A stretch of DNA of 64,000 nt from Pristiophorus japonicus (lineage: Eukaryota), in NCBI RefSeq assembly GCF_044704955.1, contig NC_091990.1, positions 156,674,001 to 156,738,000 on the forward strand. The letters run 5' to 3'. Every line of letters begins with the position of its first letter. The first letter of the stretch is position 1. The notes under the pieces were generated by a model. That model did not search any database and had not been told where the DNA came from. It saw only the letters and a program-made list of their open reading frames with translations. Positions 29,407 to 42,792 of the stretch are shown piece after piece. The position numbers were made by a program, and so were the translations under genes.

Positions 29407-29767
29407 ATTAAATTTACAACATGGAAACAGGCCATTCGGCTCAACTGGTCTATGCTCCTTCCACCCTTCTGTTTCTGCAGTGATAGTCCAGTACTATAAC
29501 CACTGGACTACTGTATTCTACACAACATAAACACAAAGGTCTGTCTGCAGTGTTTGCATGGCTTGTAATTTTCATCCAGTCGTGATCTGGTAGAGATCAA
29601 GCCAAATCCCCACATGTTACCACAGCATTGAGGTGTCATCCTGCTGCACTCTACTGGTGTTATAAGCATTGGAATTAAGAGTCTAGGCATACAGAAGCAT
29701 TGTGGTTATGTTACTGGACTAATAATTCCGAGAACCAGAGTTCAAATTGATGGTGTTTAACCACACC

Positions 29768-30182
29768 TGTAAGAATAAAAGTGTTTATTAATGAGATTGA
29801 TTCTGTGTATGTATAAATATTGAAGGAGAGATTATACGAAAGGACAGTTTTGAAAGACAAAATGGATGCTCTCAGGCTTCCAGCATGTTGTGTGTGTATA
29901 TTGTCTTCTGGCTGAACAGAGCTTAAAGATGTGTATTGGAAAGCCATTGACCTAATCAAGGAATGCACCGGTCCTCCAGACAGACACGTGTGAAGAGAGC
30001 CAATAAGGAACTGCCCTGGAACCAAGATCCAATCCTGGGGCTTTGAGAAACAATGGCTTTGAGAGCTATAAGAACTCAAGCCAAAGACTTCGCTCTCTCT
30101 TATTTCCTGAGCACACCGCAAACCGTCTGCTCAACAGCCGAAACAGCAGGCCATGTGTTCAGCCAGCCAGCCAGCCAGCGGA
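29768..30182 (+). repeat. 5' LTR (3' part and PBS deleted)
   Basis: TGTAAGAATAAAAGTGTTTATTAATGA... and CAGCCGAAACAGCA...CAGCCAGCCAG both match the 3' LTR. Confidence 0.85.
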
Positions 30183-30219
30183 AAGTTTCGTGGCATTCAG
30201 CGCATTTTATTGTGCCTGC

Positions 30220-31624
30220 AGAGATGAGGAATTAATGAGGCAGGAGGCCAAAATGATACAAGATTTAAAAGAATTGCAAGTAAAAGAGATTCAAAGAAAA
30301 GAAAGAGATTGAATGTATTAAAAACAAAAGCCGCCCTTCAACTTGTGATGCAGTTAAAAGATGGAAAAATACAGCATTTAAGACAAGAAATTGGTCAATT
30401 AAACCACAGTATTAGGCAATTAGAAAGAGGGGCCAAACAGGCAGCTTCATTGCTACAACAACAAAACCTCTCAAATTTAAATGCCACAGCAGCCATTGTT
30501 GAAGCAAATGAAAACAAATTAGAGTTAAAAAAATATAAATGGGAAAACTTGAGGCTCCAGCAAGAGATAGAAGATGCTAATGGGGAAAAATTAAGGAAAG
30601 TAATTAAGAAGCCACATAGGGAGGCAGATCACTTCCAGTGCCAACTAGAAATAGCGAGGCTAAAAAGTAAAAGTAAGTTAGGGGAGCAGTCAGTATAATC
30701 CCCAGGAGAGTGCCGTAGGATGGGATACCTTGGAGACACAAGAGCCAATCGTAGCCGTAGTAACCACTTCTTCATGACATAATACACACGGTCATATCAC
30801 CAGTAAACATACCAACACACGGCCCATATCTGGTGCTGGGGCCCATAATGATGTATAGCCACGAGTTGGGGCCCATTAATGATGGGGAAGACTCATTGGA
30901 AGTTAACAGGAGATGGACAAATTTCAGGAGGGGTCACCCAGAGTTGGAAAAGAGACTTAACACGAGTTCTCCTCTTAGCCTATTGCACTTCCCTAAAAGA
31001 TAATCTGCCAGACGCAGTCCTCCAGCCTGCCTCAGCGGCCGATGCACTCATGGCTGAGATCCTAAACCATTTAGAGATCTGAAACTTGAACTTAGTGGCT
31101 CTGCTTAATCAGACCAAGCAGTGCCCAGAAGAGACCCCGAGAGCCTTCAGTAATCGCCTGTACGATATCTATCAACATACTCAGAACCAGGCACCCGCAA
31201 ATGCTACAGCAGGAAAGAACCAGGAACAATTTAAATCGATGTTCCTGACCCAACTCCATTCTTTAGTTAAAACCACCCTGGACATAGCCATGAGGCCCAA
31301 CAATCAGTGGACCGATAGGAGAGCAGTGCTCAAACAGCCTGGGAGATGGTAAAAGACCAGTTAAAAGTGAAGTCACCACACACTGCAAATAAATCAGGGT
31401 CAACGGTGGAGGGATCTCAAAACTACCCCTTTAAGGGACAATGCTTTAATTGTAAGGAGGTAGGCCACCTAGCAAAAGACTGCAGCAGACCCAGACCAGC
31501 ACAGAACCATGATGCAACGCATAGATACCTCCCGAGGGACGAATCCAAGCCCTCTGGGACAGATCAACGATTGGACCAGTTGATAACGCTCATACAAACC
31601 CAAATTGCCACGGGGAGGATATAA
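30220..31624 (+). pseudogene. gag: gag region: coiled-coil N-terminal segment, capsid-like segment and CCHC zinc knuckle (broken by stops and frameshifts)
   Basis: K/E/Q/L-rich heptad ORF 30309-30698; QCPEETPRAFSNRL (major-homology-like); CFNCKEVGHLAKDC. Confidence 0.85.
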
Positions 31625-31699
31625 AATCATTTACCGGTGCACTCATTAGAGAGACCCATTCCAGGATCGACCCTGTGACAGGGTTCGGCCCCCAGAGAT

Positions 31700-34600
31700 T
31701 GGTCTGAAGTGGGGTTCCGACGGTAGCGGGAGACCAGTAGTCCTTGTTGTCTTAAAAAGGGGGCAGGCAGCAGATTATGCTCATCGATACTGGCTCAGCC
31801 GTTACCATCATCCACACCCCATACCCTGAATGCCTTGCAGCGGCGGGCAAAGGTTGTATGACTCTTAAAGGGTTTGACGGTGATACAGCCACCGCATATA
31901 CAGGGAAGGCCACTGAACTTCAGTTAGGAGACCTCACCTGTAAGGTCCCAGCGCCGATGTTGATGACCACCCCCGACGGAAGGGGAATTGTAGGGGCTGA
32001 TGTATTGGATCAGTATGGCGCGGTGATAGATTATAATCAGGACTGTGTTTGGATGGGATTGAGAGATAAAGCAGGAGTGATAGAAATTTCAGATGCTCAC
32101 TCAGTTATTGCTATTAAAAAGCCCTCTGAGTATGACCCTCCGGGGAGCGAAAATGAAGCCGTGGGAAAACGAATTCAGGAACACCTAGTGGTGTTTGCCA
32201 CATGCAAGCATGACTGTGGAAAAATGGCAGGTGAGGAATCGATTGAGGGATCCCCCCCCCCACTCATTCACTAAACAGTACCCCATTCCAAGGGACAGTC
32301 ACCCTTATATCTGAGACACCATAAAATCCCTAGTCGAGCAGGGTGTTCTTAGGACAGGCACTTTCACGACCAATTTACCCAAATGGTCGGTTAAAAAGCC
32401 CGATAGCAGCTGGCACTAACTATTGATTACAGAAAGTTAAATTCTGTAACACCAGCCTGCTCACCGGTAGTAAGAAAAACTCCTACCATATTATCTCAAA
32501 TTCCTGCTGTATTTCTCGACCCTCGACATCGCCAATGGATTCTGGAGCATTCCTGTTAAGAGGGAAGACCAGTACAAATTTGCGTTCACATTTGAAGAGC
32601 AGAGCTACACCTGGACATGCCTGCCTCACTGGTTCCACAACGTCCCCTCGATATTCCATAAAAGAATGGCTGCAATTTTAAAAGACTTTTCCCACCCTAC
32701 CTGCTTGCTGCAGTACATAGACGACCTACTGCTGGCAGCCGACAGCATGGAGGAACATCTGTCCCTTTTGCATGAACTTTTGACATTGTTGGCTCAGGCG
32801 GGACTAAAGGTGAATCCCCGTAAGGCTCAATTGGTAAAAGAATGGGTCACCTTTCTAGGACTGTCCATTTCTCCAGAGGGATCATGCCCCGACTCTCAAG
32901 GTGAAGATAATACAGCGACTGCCATTAACTACTTCCAAAACAGCCCTACGATCATTCTTGGGTTAGGTGAGGTACCCAGGCTTTGCAGAGTGTGCAAAGC
33001 CCCTGTTTGATTTAGAAGAACTGCAGGGTGATGACATACACCCGGCATAGACTGACACCCACACCCAGTCCATGGCTAAAATTAAAAACTGCAGTGATAC
33101 GGGCCGCATGTTTGATCCCACGCAGCCCTTCCATTTGGAGGTCGGGGCCACAGAGCAAAGCCTCACTGCAGTTCTGTGCCAAATGCGAGCTGATCGATTA
33201 CAGCCCATTGCATATGCGTCTCGAATTCCTGAAGGGGGCAGAAGACATATACCGCATGCGAGCGCCACCTACTGGCCGTCTTCTGGTTAGTACATCACTT
33301 TACCTTTATTACTGGGTTAGACGACAATCCTGCACAGCGGGCATACATCTCTGAAACTACTGATGAAACCTGGAGATTCACTAGTTTCCTCGCAGCATCT
33401 CAGCAAATGGACATTGGAATTTACGGAAAGAGACAGTGATACCATCTCCAAACCCACCACATTGCTGCCACAATTTCTGATCTATGAGCCGGACCTATAA
33501 GAATGTCCTTTACCCCTGATTAACTTTGAGACCCATCCTATGCAGAAAGAGCCCATACAGGGTGCCCCAGATGTCTATATCGATGGGTACTCAATACACA
33601 TTGAAGGAGCCCCTCACACCAGGTATGCTGTGGTATTGCCAGAACGAACCATCCAACGAAGATGCAACAGACAGTCTTCACAATATGCAGAAATCGCCGC
33701 ACTTTTAATTGCCGTGAAGGAAACCTCAGATAGACCCGCGAATATTTGGTCCGATAGTTCCTATGCAATAAACACCATGCTCTCCTTGCCCTTATACTAC
33801 AAAAATAACTATTGTACAATAGACGGTAAGGCCCTGGTCACACCTGCTCTGGTCAGATCTTAAACCGCGATCCCAGCCCTGCTTCTTGGAAAGGTAGCAG
33901 CCCATAGAAAAGGGGGTCCACATAGTGAGGGAAATTCCAGAGAAGACAGAGCAGCCAAGGACACGGAGATTGATGGGGAGATAGAGAATATAGTGATTTT
34001 GTTAGCAAGGCCTCCCCAACAGATCACCTAGATTTAAAATCCCTGCAGTAGCAATACTGGTAATATGCTGTTATAAGCACCTGGCACGAGGAAGGCAGAC
34101 CCCTTCCTCAACCACCAGCCTGGGCTCCTAATACCACTGCTAGCCACTGCCCCTGACTCAGATGAGCAATTGCTGATGTTCAAAAGAAAGCCAAATGTCT
34201 GCCCGGTGGTGTGTGTTCCACCAGAGGTGGGTCAGGAACTGCTCTCCCTCTTTCACTCCCATCCACAGCAGGTCACTATTCAGCTCTGGTAACCTTCTAT
34301 AAAGGTAACATCCACAGCTTGGTGGCCTTCCATGAGGGAAACAATCAACCAATATGTGGCACGATGCCTACCGTACCTGCAACACAATCCTCCCGCATGC
34401 ACAAACCGAGCCTTGCTTCAAAGCGCACCCCACCTCAAAGGCCATGGACTCACCTCCAGATAGACTTCATTGGGCCACTTCCACAGGCGCAAGGCAATTT
34501 TCAGCATGCCCTAGTGGTGATGGATCAATTCACTAAATAGATTGAAGCATTCCCCTGCTGCTCCAACACTGCAATCACAGCAGCCAAAACACTATTGAGT

Positions 34601-35300
34601 CATGTGTTTTGTAGGTGGGGAGTACCAGTACAAGTGGATAGTGATCAAGGTTCACACTTTACCGGTAAAATTTTTACCCACCTGCAGGAAATGTTGGGGA
34701 TAAAACACAAATTACATATTGCTCACCACCCCCAGTCATCCGGAGGGGTCGAAAGGGGGAACAGGACCCTCAAGTTAAAGTTTTAAAAAAATTGTGCACG
34801 GACCACTCCATTCAATGGGCGAACATGCTGCCAATGTGCTTAATGGCAATGAGGTCCACACCTCAGAACAACAGGGGTCTCCCCATATCAGGCCATGAGG
34901 GGGAGGCTCAAGAGAACACCAGGCCAGCTAACACTAACAGGAATGAGCCCATGACAACAAAAACATGTAGTTCCAAGTGGCTGGAACAAGTGGTAGATCA
35001 CACCGATCAGATCAATCGATTTGTGGCCACCAAATTGGGGAAGTCAAGAAGACAAATTAAAAGATACTTTGACAAGAAAGTGCGTCCCTTTGAATACGAG
35101 GTAGGAGACTCAGTAATGATTCCAAATTATGGGAAAAAGCAGCTGTCTTTGAGCCCAGGTGGTGGGGAGCACATAAGATTATAGACCGATTGAACCCTGC
35201 AGTTTATTTGATTCAGTTACTGGGGAAGAAGGGTGTTAAGTACAAGAAGTGGTTTCACATTAATCAATCAAAAACTGCCAAAGAGTATATACTGCACTGA
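31700..35300 (+). pseudogene. pol: pol: aspartic protease, RT, tether, RNase H, integrase (broken)
   Basis: LIDTGSAVT; TIDYRKLN, LDIANGFWSIP, LQYIDDLL; tether PFHLEVG..LQPIAYASR; RH VYIDG/YAEIAA/WSDSSY/KVAAH..GN; IN LQIDFIGPLP, DSDQGSHF, HPQSSGGVER, WFHINQ. Confidence 0.93.
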
Positions 35301-35377
35301 TCTTGTTTCCCACAGACCATGTTACGGATCCTCACGATTGTCAGGACGACACTGGTCACGACCGAAGCCGAGTGAAG

Positions 35378-37692
35378 ATAGAAACATAGAAACATAGAAA
35401 ATAGGTGCAGGAGCAGACCATTCAGCCCTTCTAGCCTGCACCGCCATTCAATGAGTTCATGGCTGAACATGAAACTTCAGTACCCCCTTCCTGCTTTCTC
35501 GCCATACCCCTTGATCCCCCGAGTAGTAAGGACTTCATCTAATTCCCTTTTGAATATATTTAGTGAATTGGCCTCAACTACTTTCTGTGGTAGAGAATTC
35601 CACAGGTTCACCACTCTCTGGGTGAAGAAGTTTCTCCTCATCTCAGTCCTAAATGGCTTACCCCTTATCCTTAGACTGTGACCCCTGGTTCTGGACTTTC
35701 CCAACATTGGGAACATTCTTCCTGCATCCAACCTGTCCAAACCCGTCAGAATTTTAAACGTTTCTATGAGGTCCAGTCTCACTCTTCTGAACTCCAATGA
35801 ATACAAGCCCAGTTGATCCAGTCTTTCTTGATAGGTCAGTCCCACCATCCAGGGAATCAGTCTGGTGAATCTTCGCTGCACTCCCTCAATAGCAAGAACG
35901 TCCTTCCTCAAGTTAGGAGACCAAAACTGTACACAATACTCCAGGTGTGGCCTCACCAAGGCCCTATACAACTGTAGCAACACCTCCCTGCCCCTGTACT
36001 CAAATCCCCTCGCTATGAAGGCCAACATGCCATTTGCTTTCTTAACCGCCTGCTGTACCTGCATGCCAACCTTCAATGACTGATGTACCATGACACCCAG
36101 GTCTCACTGCACCTTCCCCCTTCCTAATCTGTCACCATTCAGATAATAGTCTGTCTCTCTGTTTTTACCACCAAAGTGGATAACCTCACATTTATCCACA
36201 TTATACTTCATCTGCCACGCATTTGCCCACTCACCTAACCTATCCAAGTCACTCTGCAGCCTCATAGCATCCTCCTCGCAGCTCACACTGCCACCCAACT
36301 TAGTGTCATCCGCAAATTTGGAGATACTACATTTAATCCCCTCGTCTAAATCATTAATGTACAATGTAAACAGCTGGGGCCCCAGCACAGAACCTTGCGG
36401 TACCCCACTAGTCACTGCCTGCCATTCTGAAAAGTACCCATTTACTCCTACTCTTTGCTTCCTGTCTGACAACCAGTTCTCAATCCACTACCCCCAATCC
36501 CATGTGCTTTAACTTTGCACATTAATCTCCTGTGTGGGACCTTGTCGAAAGCCTTCTGAAAGTCCAAATATACCATATCAACTGGTTCTCCTTTGTCCAC
36601 TTTACTGGAAACATCCTCAAAAAATTCCAGAAGATTTGTCAAGCATGATCTCCCTTTCACAAATCCATGCTGACTTGGACCTATCATGTCACCATTTTCC
36701 AAATGCGCTGCTATGACATCCTTAATAATTGATTCCATCATTTTACCCACTACTGAGGTCAGGCTGACCGATCTATAATTCCCTGCTTTCTCTCTCCCTC
36801 CTTTTTTTAAAAAGTGGGGTTACATTGGCTACCCTCCACTCGATAGGAACTGATCCAGAGTCAATGGAATGTTGGAAAATGACTGTCAATGCATCCGCTA
36901 TTTCCAAGGCCACCTCCTTAAGTACTCTGGGATGCAGTCCATCAGGCCCTGGGGATTTATCGGCCTTCAATCCCATCAATTTCCCCAACACAATTTCCCG
37001 ACTAATAAAAATTTCCCTCAGTTCCTCCTCCTTACTAGACCCTCTGACCCCTTTTATATCCGGAAGGTTGTTTGTGTCCTCCTTAGTGAATACTGAACCA
37101 AAGTACTTGTTCAATTGGTCTGCCATTTCTTTGTTCCCCGTTATGACTTCCCCTGATTCTGACTGCAGGGGACCTATGTTTGTCTTTACTAACATTTTTC
37201 TCTTTACATACCTATAGAAACTTTTGCAATCCGCCTTAATGTTCCCTGCAAGCTTCTTCTCGTACTCCATTTTCCCTGCCCTAATCAAACCCTTTGTCCT
37301 CCTCTGCTGAGTTCAAAATTTCTCCCAGTCCCCAGGTTCGCTGCTATTTCTGGCCAATTTGTATGCCACTTCCTTGGCTTTAATACTATCCCTGATTTCC
37401 CTAGATAGCCACGGTTGAGCCACCTTCCCTTTTTTATTTTTACGCCAGACAGGAATGTACAATTGTTGTAATTCATCCATGCGGTCTCTCAATGTCTGCC
37501 ATTGCCCATCCACAGTCAACCCCTTAAGTATCATTCGCCAATCTATCCTAGCCAATTCACGCCTCATACCTTCAAAGTTACCCTTCTTTAAGTTCTGGAC
37601 CATGGTCTCTGAATTAACTGTTTCATTCTCCATCCTAATGCAGGATTCCACCATATTATGGTCACTCTTCCCCAAGGGGCCTCGCACAATGA
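35378..37692 (-). mobile_element. Young 5'-truncated CR1 LINE inserted in the LTR element
   Basis: ORF2 pieces 35477-37711, nearly identical to 59036-62320; (ATAGAAAC)n tail at ~35378-35400. Confidence 0.97.
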
Positions 37693-38179
37693 GAAGTGGG
37701 AGCTGCAGCATGGCTCACGAACAGCATCAATCATCAATGTGCTTTGAGAAGCAATAGTGCACTGAAGATACGGGAAGGGGAGAGTCTCCACTAGAGATGT
37801 TATTGTACTATAGTAAATCCCCCAAGTGTGGCCTACACCTTTGTGTCAAAAGGCTACTCCGACTGAGACTCTGGGGGCCGGCATCCAACCGGCCAAAGGG
37901 ACTCTGGGGGCCGGCGCTGACTTACATCTTAGGCGCTTAATCAACTTTTAAACTTTTTAAACAACCCGAGTTACTTTTTATACAATTTGGAAATACTTTT
38001 AAACATTTAAGAAACTTTTAAATAACCTTGGAAACTCGAAGAAACTTCGTAAAACATCCCCCAGTGGACAGCTGACCTTCCTAATGCCTGCCCCCCAATC
38101 AAGCCACGGGCCACCTACCATCAATGGCGCGACTCGGCGCCGAGCTTGCGGCCAACACCCCTCCGTAGCCAATCAGGCT

Positions 38180-41100
38180 CATACAGCAGTGCCTGGTCTC
38201 CAGTCGTCTTGGACCCTATTGCCACTGGACCATGACCTAGCTCCGTCAAGCCCGTGTGGTTGCTGGTGTGCAGCAGCCCCCCCATGTTAAAAGAACTCAT
38301 GCACAGGCATCTTCAACTTCGTTAATATGAAGTTCGGGACCTGGAAAGTCAGGACCCTCATGGACAATTCCAACAGCAACAGGCCGGAACGCCGCACCGC
38401 CATAGTTGCCCGGGAACGCAAGACATTTTGACATCGACATCGCCGCCCTAAGCGAGACCCGGCCGGCAGGGGAAGGCCAGCTCAAGGAACAAGGTGGAGG
38501 TTACACCTTTTTCTGGAAAGGAAAACCAGAGGAAGAACGCCGCCTTCACGGAGTCAGCTTCGCCGTCAAAAATGAGCTGGTCGACTGCCTCAAAGACTCC
38601 GCCTACGGGGTTAATGAACGCCTCATGACTCTTCATCTCATCCTATCCCGGAACCAAGGCGCCACAGTCATCAGTGCGTACGCCCCAACACTCGATGCAA
38701 TGGATGAGGCCAAAGAGGATTTTTATTCCAACCTCGAGACATCCCTGTCCCACGTCCCCACGGGCGACAAACTGATCCTCCTTGGTGACTTTAATGCCAG
38801 GGTCGGCAAAGACTCCCTCTGGGGAGGCGTGATTGGCAGAGAGGGGATAGAGAAAGCCAACTCCAGTGGTACCCTACTCCTGACAAAATGTCCAGAGCAT
38901 AAACTCATTACCAAAACTCTGTTCCGCCAGAGGGACAAATATAAGGCATCGTGGCAACATCCTCACTCCAAACACTGGCACCTGCTCGACTCGTCCGAGC
39001 TAGGGATCACAAGGATGTGTGCATCACCCGCGCCATGACAGGAGCGGACGACTGCTGGATGGACCACCACCTAATCCGATCCATCATCGATATTAAATTA
39101 GCCCCAAAGCAGAGGCGACAGCAGAAGCAGTGCCGTAAAAAAGTCAATGCCAGGGCACGTAAGGACCCAGCTCAGAGAGCCCTATACAGCCAGCACCCCA
39201 CAGCTAATCTGGCATACCTTGATGACCCAGAGATGCTGAATGCCCACAGCGCTTGGTCTGTCCTCTAGGCTTCTATAACCAGTGCCTGTGAAGAGACACT
39301 TGGTTACTCAACCAGAAAACATCAGGACTGGTTTGATGAAAATGATCAGGAGATCCAAGAACTAATAGATCGCAAGTGCAGAGCATTTCTGAGCCTCAAG
39401 CAACAACCCAACTCGGGAGCTACAAAACAACGTTGCAGACGGCTCAAGGCTGAGGTCCAACAAAAAACCCGAGACCTGAAGAACAAGTGGTGGATGGAGA
39501 AAGCACAGGAGATACAACAACTGGCCGACAGCCATGATATGCGAGGATTCTTCACTGCAGTCAAGGCCACCTACGGTCTAAACTCCTAAGGCCCCACCCC
39601 ACTCCTGGCCAAGAATGGGGAAACATGCATGAAGGACACCGAGACGGTCAGGGCCCGCTGAAAGGAGCACTTCGAAGATCTCCTCAAATCGAGACTCTGC
39701 CTTTGACTCAAGTGTTCTCTACTCCATCCCGCAGCACCTGACCGCCACCATCTCAGTGAAACCTCAACGTTGCATGAGGCAGGCAAAGCCATAAAACAGC
39801 TCAAGAATAACAAGGCTACGGCAGCAGATGGAATCCCTGCTGAGGCGCTAAAGTATGGCGGAGAGGCGCTGTTGGCGCGGATACATGACCTCATCTCTCT
39901 CATCTGGAGGGAGGAGAGCATGCCGGGAGATCTCAGAGATGCAATGATTGTGACCATCTTTAAAAAAGGGGACAAGTCCAACTGCAGCAACTACAGGGGA
40001 ATCTCCCTGCCATCAGCCACTGGGAAAGTTGTAGCTAGAGTTCTCCTTAATGTTCTTCTCCCTGTGGCCGAGGAGTTCCTCCCGGAATCAGTACGGATTT
40101 CATCCCCTACGGGGCACAACGGACATGATCTTTGCAGCACGACAGCAGCAGCAGTCCTTATACATGGCCTTTTTCGATCTTACAAAGGCATTTGACACGG
40201 TCAACCGTGAGCGCCTATGGAGCGTCCTCCTCCGTTTCGGATGCCCCCAAAAGTTTGTCAACATCCTTCGCTTGCACCATGACGACATACAGGCTAAGAT
40301 CCTTACCAATGGATCCATTACAGACTCAATCCCACGTCCGGACCAAGGTCAAACAGGGCTGTGTCATTGCACCAACCCTCTTAATTTTCCTCGCTGCCAT
40401 GCTCCACGTCACAGTCAACAAGTTCCCCGCTGGAGTGGAACTAAACTACAGAACCAGTGGGAAGCTGGTTAACCTACGCCACCTCCAGGCCAGGTCCAAG
40501 ATCACCTCAACCTCTGTCGTTGAGCTACAGTACGAGGACGACACCTGCTTCTGCACACATTGAAGCTGACTCCAGGATATATTCGATGTATTCACCGAGG
40601 CATATGAAAGCATGGGCCTTACGCTCAACATCCGTAAGACAAAGGTCCTCCACCAGCCTGGCCTCACCGCACACCTCTGTCCCCCAGTCATCAAGATTCA
40701 CGGCGTGGCCCTTGACAACGTGGACCATTTCCCATACCTCGGGAGCCTCTTAACAAGAGCAGACATTGATGCGGAGATTCAACACCGTCTCCAGTGCAGC
40801 CTTCGGCTGTCTGACGAAAAGAGTGTTCGAAGAACAGGCCGTCAAATCTACCACCAAGCTCATGGTCTACAGGGCTATAGTAATACCCGCCCTCCTGTAT
40901 GGCTCAAAGGCATGGACCATGTACAGTGGACACCTCAAGTCGCTGGAGATATATCACCAATGATGTCTCCGCAAGATCCTACAAATCCCCTGGGAGGACA
41001 GGCGCATCAACATCGGCGTCCCCAGCATTGAAGCACTGAGCACACATGATCAGCTCCGCTGGGCAGGCCACATAATTCGCATGCCAGACATGAGACTCCC

Positions 41101-41487
41101 AAAGCAAGTGCTCCTTCACGGCAAACGAGCCAAAGGTGGGCAGCGGAAACATTACAAGGACACCCTCAAAGCCTCCCTGATAAAGTGCGACATCACCACT
41201 GACATCTGGGAGTCCTTGGCCGAAGACCGACCTAGGTGGAGAAAGTGCATCCGGGAGGGCGTTGAGCTCTTCTAATCTCAACACTGAGAGCGTGAAGAGG
41301 TCAAGCGCAGGCAGCGGAAGGAGCGTGCGGCAAACCAGTCCCACACACCCGTTCCCTCGGCGAATATCTGTCCCGCCTGTGACAGAGTCTGTGGCTCTCG
41401 TATTGGATTGTTCAGCCACCAAAGAACTCACTTCAGGAGTGGAAGCAAGTCTTCCTCGATTCCGAGGGACTGCCTATGATGATGATA
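38180..41487 (+). mobile_element. RTE-clade LINE, near full-length and degenerate, inserted in the LTR element
   Basis: APE endonuclease (DIAALSETR, ISAYAPT, LLGDFNARVG), RT (YGFHPLRGTTDMIF, FFDLTKAFDTVNR, VKQGCVIAP), C-terminal LRWAGHI.RMPD.RLPKQ and a (GAT)n tail. Confidence 0.92.
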
Positions 41488-41691
41488 CCTTACGAGGTGG
41501 GGACCAAGTCAGGCCATTCACTTTTCTCTTTCTCTCAAAGTTTAAAACCCATTATCCAGCGGTCATCCAGCTCACAGAAACATAAACAGCAGAGCTATCA
41601 GAACCCTCTCAATGTTTATGATATGTGAGCCCCGAGGAGATAAACCAAATGAGGAGTCAATAAGGATATTTCCCCCTCAAGGTGGAGAGTT

Positions 41692-41982
41692 TGTAAGAAT
41701 AAAAGTGTTTATTAATGATAAGATTGATTCTGTATGTATAAATGTTGAAGGTGAGATTATACCAGCCGAAACAGCAAGCCATGGGTTCAGCCAGCCAGAG
41801 GAGTGATGTTTACCTTTTTATAAATCATTATTGAAACTTTGTATCTGTTGTAACTAAGTCGATCCGTAGGATAGCCGACGACTGCTGATAAATGTGCATG
41901 TGTGTGTTTAATAAACTATTCCGAATTGTTTTAAAAGAATCAGTCTCACTGTCAATTTAATGCCAGAGATTGAGATCTTACA
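41692..41982 (+). repeat. 3' LTR (internal deletion)
   Basis: TGTAAG...CTTACA, AATAAA at ~41910, followed by the TSD CACC. Confidence 0.9.
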
Positions 41983-42792
41983 CACCTCAGACAGCAAGAC
42001 TGCCTCAGCCGACAATACAAATGCCAAGTAGTGTGCAGTCGGTCACAAGTAAAGGAGGGTAAAGATAACGCCAATCTGGAGCCCAAGGCTATCACGGCAC
42101 AGACCGGTGAAGTAGTTCAGCCATCATTGTCCTGTACAGACCTCACTCAGCCACAGGAAATATATTAGCATCAGAAAGACTGATCTGGTGATGTTTCATC
42201 TTGTCATTTATCTTATTGCTGTTTGTGACAGCTTGCTGTGCACAAATTGGCTGCCATCATTCCTATATTACAATAGTGACTACACCTCCAAAGTACAAAG
42301 TGCAAAGAACTTTGGTACATTCGGACGTCGTGAAAGATGCCATTATAAGACAATTTCAAAACTTAAAACTTGAAAACAACTGCACATATGCAAACTTACA
42401 CAGGGGCAACTGCTTTAAAGTGCATCTTGCTATGGAAAAACTGCTCAGCATAATAAAAACCGAGTGGCTTAAACAGTACCAGAACTGGGAACCAGTATTG
42501 GAGAGTTACTTCAATTCACTATGCAGTTCTTCAATATATAACATTAAATGGTGACAAACAGAACTCATTAATATGAAATTCATCTGGTCAGGGAGAATAA
42601 ATCTACTGGTCCTGCATCCAATTTTGCAATCTATGCCCAAAGATATTTTGCCATTAAAACTTAACTTGTGATCTAACAAGGGGAAAAAATGCAATAAACA
42701 GATGTAGATTTCAGAGTTCAGCAAACCGGTTGCAAAATTACGTTGCCATACAAAGAACAAAACTGACACAATGGGGGGGGGGGGGGGGGGGG

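Follow-up and report, generated by a model that had tools for sequence, protein, structure and literature searches.

A dead, envelope-less provirus in the genome of the shark Pristiophorus japonicus and its probable place among early-branching canonical endogenous retroviruses

Introduction

Class III endogenous retroviruses (ERVs) related to snakehead retrovirus (SnRV) form clade Huo and occur in all major vertebrate lineages (PMC6001957); here and below, statements on published systems refer to the cited part of each source. SnRV-like ERVs, possibly an ancestral branch, are the main ERV type of the coelacanth (PMC4977317), and the elephant shark carries an SnRV-like lineage, CmiERV lineage I (PMC4422223). 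Relatives of Ovex1 and SnRV, unlike ERV4, can carry env, a GPY/F motif and a zinc finger in Gag (PMC4299795), and crocodilian ERVs near Ovex1/SnRV carry env (PMC4299795, section 7). In this work we analyze a long terminal repeat (LTR) element at positions 29768 to 41982 of a 64,000-nt stretch of the Pristiophorus japonicus genome (contig NC_091990.1, 156,674,001 to 156,738,000), hereafter the window.

Two further systems combine features seen in this element. Lokiretroviruses are defined by their own reverse transcriptase (RT) clade, a dual RNase H and an F-like envelope protein (Env) (PMC7947760). Odin elements are env-less, sister to lokiretroviruses and found in sea anemones (PMC9040795). 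For env-less ERVs two routes of amplification have been described, retrotransposition in cis and complementation in trans (PMC10435555). A preliminary description of the window, made from its letters, had presented the element as a retrovirus-grade, lokiretrovirus- or Odin-like LTR element with dual RNase H in an apparent shark genome. With a probability of roughly three in four, we read it as a dead provirus of a multi-copy ERV family whose enzymes group with a Xenopus ERV in the class III, SnRV-like grade, and which likely lost env and then likely spread by retrotransposition in germ cells.

Results

Phylogenetic placement

The proteins nearest to the element are Pols of Xenopus tropicalis (58%, over RT plus the tether, a degenerate gypsy-type RNase H), coelacanth (49%), frogs (44-46%) and turtle (36%), all with dual RNase H. 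These relatives are unnamed or automatically named ERV Pols, such as 'Gypsy retrotransposon integrase-like' or NYNRIN-like, and proteins with loki motifs score far below them on RT. RT trees were computed on 140 rows (FastTree), 68 rows (a quick tree) and 40 rows, a set in which published fish foamy-like ERVs are not labelled. Rows were taken as loki references where they shared the RT motifs seen in the published Pol of Loki-Str; their named hosts include lamprey and bony fishes. Foamy, gamma, epsilon, class II and SnRV-type references are viral contigs that we take to be such from their motifs and genome lengths, including reference L031, which is presumably SnRV.

In the 140-, 68- and 40-row RT trees the element grouped with the X. 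tropicalis Pol (P0005, UniRef) on the canonical side (support 0.96, 91 and 95/97), with lokiretroviruses separate (1.0, 99 and 100/100). The same sister, whose Pol is unbroken, unlike that of the window element, was recovered for RNase H (98/93; loki apart at 98/97) and for integrase (100/99; loki apart at 100/100). Three trees of RT plus tether supported the canonical side at 100/99. In them the family belongs to a grade that branches off early, beneath foamy, SnRV, epsilon and gamma viruses as one group, an order that may be distorted by the long foamy branch and by unequal decay of the tether. Forcing the element and its two nearest rows into the loki clade was rejected by the approximately unbiased (AU) test (p-AU 0.032), and joining the grade and SnRV in one clade on RT costs 0.1 log units (p 0.39). 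A clade of the element and the presumed SnRV received 0.92 in the 140-row FastTree tree, was unresolved in the 40-row tree and was absent with the tether.

The element's RT lies on the canonical side, outside classes I and II and the foamy viruses. On RT, with and without the tether, it falls outside class I (epsilon- and gammaretroviruses) and the foamy clade is separate from it at 100/100, and membership in class I and in Spumaretrovirinae was rejected on these grounds. Among proteins of solved structure the RT matched foamy virus Pol best (E 3e-22), followed by caulimovirus-type, Ty3 and MLV enzymes, and foamy viruses also make 4-bp target duplications; they differ in forming a long-branch clade of their own in all trees, whereas the shark family's Gag has a zinc knuckle. 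ERV4 has a 5-bp target-site duplication and an env, with neither Gag zinc finger nor GPY/F motif (PMC4299795); it was rejected because the shark element has a 4-bp duplication, a CCHC knuckle and a GPY/F-type end, and no env.

In every tree a split of 100/99-100 separates the element from all gypsy rows. This leaves next to no probability for an ordinary Ty3/gypsy element that carries an additional RNase H, a reading to which the automatic gypsy names of the relatives and priming by tRNA-Ala would be suited, and membership in Metaviridae (Ty3/gypsy) was rejected on the dual RNase H and on the distance of the RT from gypsy clades. The earlier assignment to retrovirus grade, deep in the retroviral tree, holds.

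Its loki- or Odin-like character does not. A chondrichthyan lokiretrovirus would be a new find, five chondrichthyan genomes bearing no hit mark in the cited part of the loki survey (PMC7947760), and there are real likenesses: dual RNase H, a coiled-coil Gag N-terminus as in lokiretroviruses (PMC7947760), and a NYNRIN/CGIN1-like integrase whose C-terminal half resembles that of Loki-Str by eye and whose relatives are named NYNRIN-like in databases. Dual RNase H is not diagnostic of lokiretroviruses, however, because it is common to all retroviruses. The element is set apart from lokiretroviruses in the trees of all three domains (RT, RNase H, integrase) and by two AU tests, and it lacks both their RT motifs and the long double-protease region that precedes RT in Loki-Str Pol and in loki-motif rows. 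The shark family has a single protease, with a protease-RT gap of 205 aa in the window element and 204-213 aa across family and relatives (204 in the SnRV-type genome), against 593-610 aa in three loki rows and 347 aa in one. The F-like env expected of a lokiretrovirus is absent from the window family, F-like Env occurring in its sister families. Odin works alike, with gag and pol only and dual RNase H; it is sister to lokiretroviruses and known only from sea anemones, env loss in the shark looks secondary, and the comparison is one of organization, with no Odin sequence aligned. We regard a lokiretrovirus or Odin-like element as very improbable.

Likeness to the SnRV-like group, or clade Huo, extends from the deep canonical-side RT, with relatives in amphibians, coelacanth and turtles, to a coiled-coil Gag with one CCHC, the equal protease-RT spacing and the GPY/F-type integrase end. 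The gag region of another copy matches SnRV-type Gag (E 4e-10). Judged from these alignments, the element appears to be an early-branching canonical retrovirus of the class III, SnRV-like grade (clade Huo), outside lokiretroviruses; it falls in a described group, which comes near to a refuting condition set by the preliminary description, but inside no named genus. CmiERV lineage I is defined by env (PMC4422223), which the shark family lacks; identity was compared only as far as the lineage I supplement, where the family's primer site found no match. The cited part of a frog ERV survey (10.1101/2024.07.05.601823) makes no mention of the group to which the shark family belongs.

One Pol of the turtle/bird branch (P0151, three cluster members) combines a dead RT motif with unbroken length; we presume that it could be a domesticated Ovex1-type gene.

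Anatomy of the window copy

The element and its flanks comprise the following features, all given in window coordinates:

29764..29767, +, left target-site duplication CACC (from sequence)
29768..30174, +, 5' LTR, U3 and part of R (the match to other copies' LTR stops at 30174)
30184..31624, +, gag, broken: coiled-coil, C-terminal part of capsid, CCHC zinc knuckle at 31442 (zf-CCHC E 5e-7)
31756..32100, +, aspartyl protease, DTG motif near 31786 (Pfam gag-asp_proteas E 7e-5, below cut-off)
32260..33050, +, RT and thumb, split by frameshifts and stops (RVT_1 E 3e-25; tblastn pieces)
33110..33440, +, tether, the degenerate gypsy-type RNase H (PF17919/PF17917)
33567..33975, +, second RNase H, complete (D-E-D-D and His loop), one in-frame stop (PF00075 over cut-off)
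34200..35290, +, integrase, broken: HHCC, D-D-E core, GPY/F-type C-terminus (rve E 1e-7; motifs at 34457, 34637, 35250)
35299..35380, +, probable env stub, first part: pyrimidine tract, AG 35314-35315, ATG 35319 (position only)
35381..37690, -, nested long interspersed nuclear element (LINE), 5'-truncated, presumably CR1-like (RVT_1 E 3e-14; other copies lack an insertion here)
37691..37841, +, probable env stub, middle part (joins 35380 directly in other copies)
37842..41485, +, nested LINE, presumably RTE-like, near full length, short target duplication (endonuclease E 2e-6, RVT_1 E 1e-9; junctions)
41486..41678, +, probable env stub, last part (precedes the 3' LTR in other copies)
41679..41689, +, polypurine tract (adjoins the 3' LTR; 11 exact junctions of this tract and the LTR genome-wide)
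41692..41982, +, 3' LTR, U3 short by about 295 nt (comparison with other copies)
41983..41986, +, right target-site duplication CACC (from sequence)

The ends of the element read TG...CA and CACC flanks both sides, which agrees with the 4-bp target duplication reported before; 7 of 11 callable other copies have one of the same length. The preliminary description was right that this is an LTR element with nested LINEs and an integrase behind the second RNase H (rve E 1e-7). It overlooked the deletions, and its net length of about 6.5 kb comes down to a measured 6,255 nt without the two LINEs. Compared with other copies, the window copy has lost U5, the primer binding site and the start of gag at its 5' end, the interior restarting after 30174 at 30184, which corresponds to position 423 in the interior of another copy, and its 3' LTR lacks about 295 nt of U3. 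Its pol is recovered as seven tblastn pieces over three frames. The LINE classes are our assumption from motifs, their RT and endonuclease domains being computed. The window copy is a dead, rearranged provirus, unable to copy itself because its primer site is lost and two LINEs have been taken in.

The motifs of pol quoted in the preliminary description stand where it had put them: LDIANGFWSIP at 32522 and LQYIDDLL at 32708 in RT, PFHLEVG at 33126 and QPIAYASR at 33201 in the tether, and VYIDG at 33573, YAEIAA at 33684, WSDSSY at 33747 and KVAAHRKGGPHSEGN at 33891 in the second RNase H. The tether (RT_RNaseH_2, E 2e-8 on the window) is degenerate as had been claimed, lacking the first, third and last of the four catalytic acids that gypsy RNase H rows retain. 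The second domain, described as a complete RNase H, matches the profile (PF00075, E 2e-8, 34.9 bits against a cut-off of 25.8), retains the D-E-D-D residues together with the His loop, and aligns position by position with the RNase H of MLV, foamy, SnRV-type and loki elements. One other copy encodes the tether (E 2e-21), the RNase H (E 4e-17) and the integrase zinc domain within one natural open frame, and H2C2 and rve integrase domains are detected in other family copies. In copy L016 (314-1177) the Gag N-terminus, absent from the window copy, gave a weak CARD_2 match (E 0.007, below cut-off); a second copy gave none.

The family in the shark genome

A search of the 5.9-Gb genome with the window RNase H returned 150 scored matches, all 150 at 79-88% identity, and 9,589 loose candidates, and the junction of LTR and primer site, in one spacer variant, occurs 122 times. 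The family has at least 150 copies in P. japonicus. Env-less ERVs can attain high copy numbers. The shark family alone has hundreds of copies, against a published range of 100-700 for all ERV insertions in the elephant shark. Sixty copies were read among the hundreds or more, 20 chosen by RNase H and 40 by primer site; over RNase H and integrase, the DNA of 45 of them matches the window at 85-91% identity. Where large insertions and deletions are absent, copies measure about 6.7-7.5 kb, with LTRs near 550 nt.

In other copies the primer site complements the 3' terminus of host tRNA-Ala genes. At the first three primer-complement loci ARAGORN detected no tRNA, but it identified tRNA-Ala in a tandem array; a large array of this kind (L108, near 476.2 Mb) accounts for the majority of the 100 matches listed first among 428 exact ones to the primer complement.

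LTR pairs diverge by 0.033-0.099 (17 pairs) and 0.052-0.085 (seven pairs), with no identical pair sampled; the window's own pair diverges by 0.040, over only 104 sites. A self-match at distance 0.32 in L011 was left out of the dating, not being an LTR pair. Published shark substitution rates are 0.5e-9 (PMC10699275) and 2.2e-10 (PMC4422223) per site per year, which give 33-99 and 75-225 million years, respectively. On the faster published rate the family was probably amplified some 30-100 million years ago.

A missing env and its probable stub behind pol

The distance from a fixed probe at the integrase end to the 3' LTR is short in 17 of the 20 copies chosen by RNase H (285-824 nt, the two longest holding CR1 pieces); two others are cut by other sequence and one lacks that end. 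Among the 40 copies chosen by primer site, 20 were measurable, 17 of them at 275-455 nt, two longer through CR1 and one unreadable. None of the 37 measurable copies has room for env. A search with the stub translation gave 150 matches, all in open frames of 79-151 aa except one of 342, and seven Env queries run against 61 loci found no match in the stub. That the element has no recognisable env, as first described, is thus upheld; the env-like stub behind pol had gone unnoticed.

The Env queries did match two loci, L134 and L155, and an own-family env was rejected for both: the Env traces to another family, which in L134 adjoins at a breakpoint and in L155 is recognised from similarity alone. 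At the L134 junction (L134:5751) the shark family's integrase is fused to another ERV family's RNase H, followed by that family's env. CR1 pieces lie inside the stub in three copies, L014, L020 and the window copy (at 35381), at different sites.

Directly behind the stop codon of pol, 33 of 40 copies keep a pyrimidine tract with AG and 36 of 40 an ATG, a layout that matches the env start of an env-bearing related family, and stub length differs by deletions (285-514 nt from the fixed probe in insertion-free copies). Env was probably lost, because splice acceptor and ATG survive after pol, and the short stretch would be the remnant of the deleted gene, a view drawn from position and splice signals, there being no homology. 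The presence in the shark genome of env-bearing families of the same grade supports env loss in the window family.

Two other accounts of the missing env were weighed. The family might be primitively without env and represent a retrotransposon lineage of Odin grade at the root of the canonical retroviruses, with a plain 3' untranslated region behind pol. Its early branching in the RT plus tether trees, the lack of env in all sampled copies and of Env homology in the stub would agree with this; the conserved splice acceptor and ATG directly behind pol, a stub length that varies through deletions and the presence of env in relatives as deep or deeper (also PMC4299795) make it unlikely. Alternatively, the family could be a defective derivative complemented in trans, packaged or pseudotyped by env-bearing families or by a rare, unsampled env-bearing parent. 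Several env-bearing families of the same grade do coexist in the genome, and one locus fuses the family's pol to another family's pol and env. The copies, however, keep gag and pol at full length, the natural open frames reaching 667 aa, which fits use in cis, and the 60 loci read include no env-bearing member; we consider complementation improbable.

Sister families and their envelope proteins

A frog-type integrase query led to other ERV families in the shark genome, of which 20 loci were read; most read loci with a downstream open reading frame (ORF) encode an Env with an immunoglobulin (Ig)-like tip, a furin site and a membrane anchor. At L109-L125 and L128 at least three other dual-RNase-H families occur, several with ORFs after pol that combine an Ig-like N-terminus, RxKR, a hydrophobic peptide and an anchor and resemble the Env of lokiretroviruses as well as paramyxovirus F. 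In the RT plus tether trees one env-bearing family falls in the same early grade and another nearer the fish/epsilon side. Homologues of the sister-family Env, up to 92% identical, are named from sharks and skate, in accord with the shark host proposed earlier.

In the ESM Atlas, Fusion_gly clusters ranked first for a sister Env (0.90, 207/256 features). With hhalign this Env matched 37 paramyxovirus F proteins at a probability of 47% (E 2e-4, 118 columns); in comparison, gamma Env reached E 0.24 and five shuffles 0.71-1. An F-type reading is opposed by Pfam, which found no Fusion_gly in 12 downstream ORFs (weak Ig_3 in two, TLV_coat in one), by the PDB, in which neither the sister Env nor its profile matched any sequence, and by an AlphaFold model that is unusable (mean pLDDT 42.9, pTM 0.29). 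A genome search with PF00523 gave no matches and is uninformative, as it was a stricter first look, had no control and missed F-like Envs too. The SnRV-type Env as genome query was matched by none of 28 candidates. On balance, moderate evidence from sequence comparison suggests that sister families of the early grade carry a paramyxovirus-F-like Env.

Three observations stand beside these. The presumed SnRV-type Env (L031:6131-9535) aligns to the shark Envs (E 5e-4), weakly to paramyxovirus F (E 0.009) and not to gamma-type Env. Another family, at L126 and L127, has a gamma-type Env (TLV_coat E 8e-14) on a deep-type pol. A frog Pol of the early grade (P0007) continues, at residues 1190-1331, into a signal-like segment and an Ig-like domain, where an Ig-tipped Env may begin; BLAST with the SnRV-type Env gave no match within this tail.

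Discussion

Under the reading that we prefer, an ancestral env would have been lost from the family, leaving a stub after pol, and the family would have been amplified in cis by retrotransposition in germ cells and not by reinfection. Gag-Pol particles would prime on tRNA-Ala, the second RNase H would degrade the RNA template and the integrase would make 4-bp target duplications; the window copy would afterwards have lost its primer site and received two LINEs.

Several points weigh against this reading. The trees hold no Odin, ERV-L or elephant-shark CmiERV sequence, and their loki and reference-virus labels are ones we assigned from motifs and presumed identities. In the integrase tree some relatives, the element excepted, group weakly with lokiretroviruses (83/74), and the AU test is only borderline for the whole grade plus lokiretroviruses (p 0.0496). 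With the tether, SnRV moves to the foamy, epsilon and gamma viruses (81/99, 96/98, 88/96), and because it then leaves the group, 'SnRV-like' denotes here a grade and not a demonstrated clade. The stub is identified from its position and splice signals because it resembles none of the seven Env queries. The closest relative, Xenopus P0005, is known from its Pol and not from sequence behind pol, and the env-less state is that of 60 copies read of hundreds or more.

The Env of the sister families bears on a wider question. Foamy Env is structurally F-like (PMC11468914), and the cited part of a preprint (10.1101/2023.10.26.564294) still regards an F-like Env, within vertebrate retroviruses, as a trait of lokiretroviruses. 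An F-type Env in the sister families favours an F-type Env as ancestral for retroviruses. Only tentatively, and against the greater weight of our own doubt, might one go on to propose that ERVs of sharks, amphibians, coelacanth and turtles form a grade which diverged before foamy viruses, snakehead retrovirus and orthoretroviruses parted, and that its env-bearing members, those of the shark genome and SnRV itself, share a paramyxovirus-F-type Env with loki- and foamy viruses, implying a single origin of env. The literature consulted, which excludes Hayward et al. 2015 (PNAS), Chen et al. 2022 (J Virol, on anamniote envelopes) and Repbase/Dfam, holds no description of the shark family or of an F-type Env in SnRV-like ERVs.

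The most suitable classification for the element is as a new family within an already known deep ERV grade. It extends this group to a large env-less family in a shark, and it illustrates that dual RNase H without env does not imply a lokiretrovirus or Odin. Whether retroviral env had a single or a multiple origin is left open in the cited parts of PMC7947760 and PMC9040795, and shark genomes, with several early-grade families, some with an F-type Env, offer material for deciding between one and several origins.

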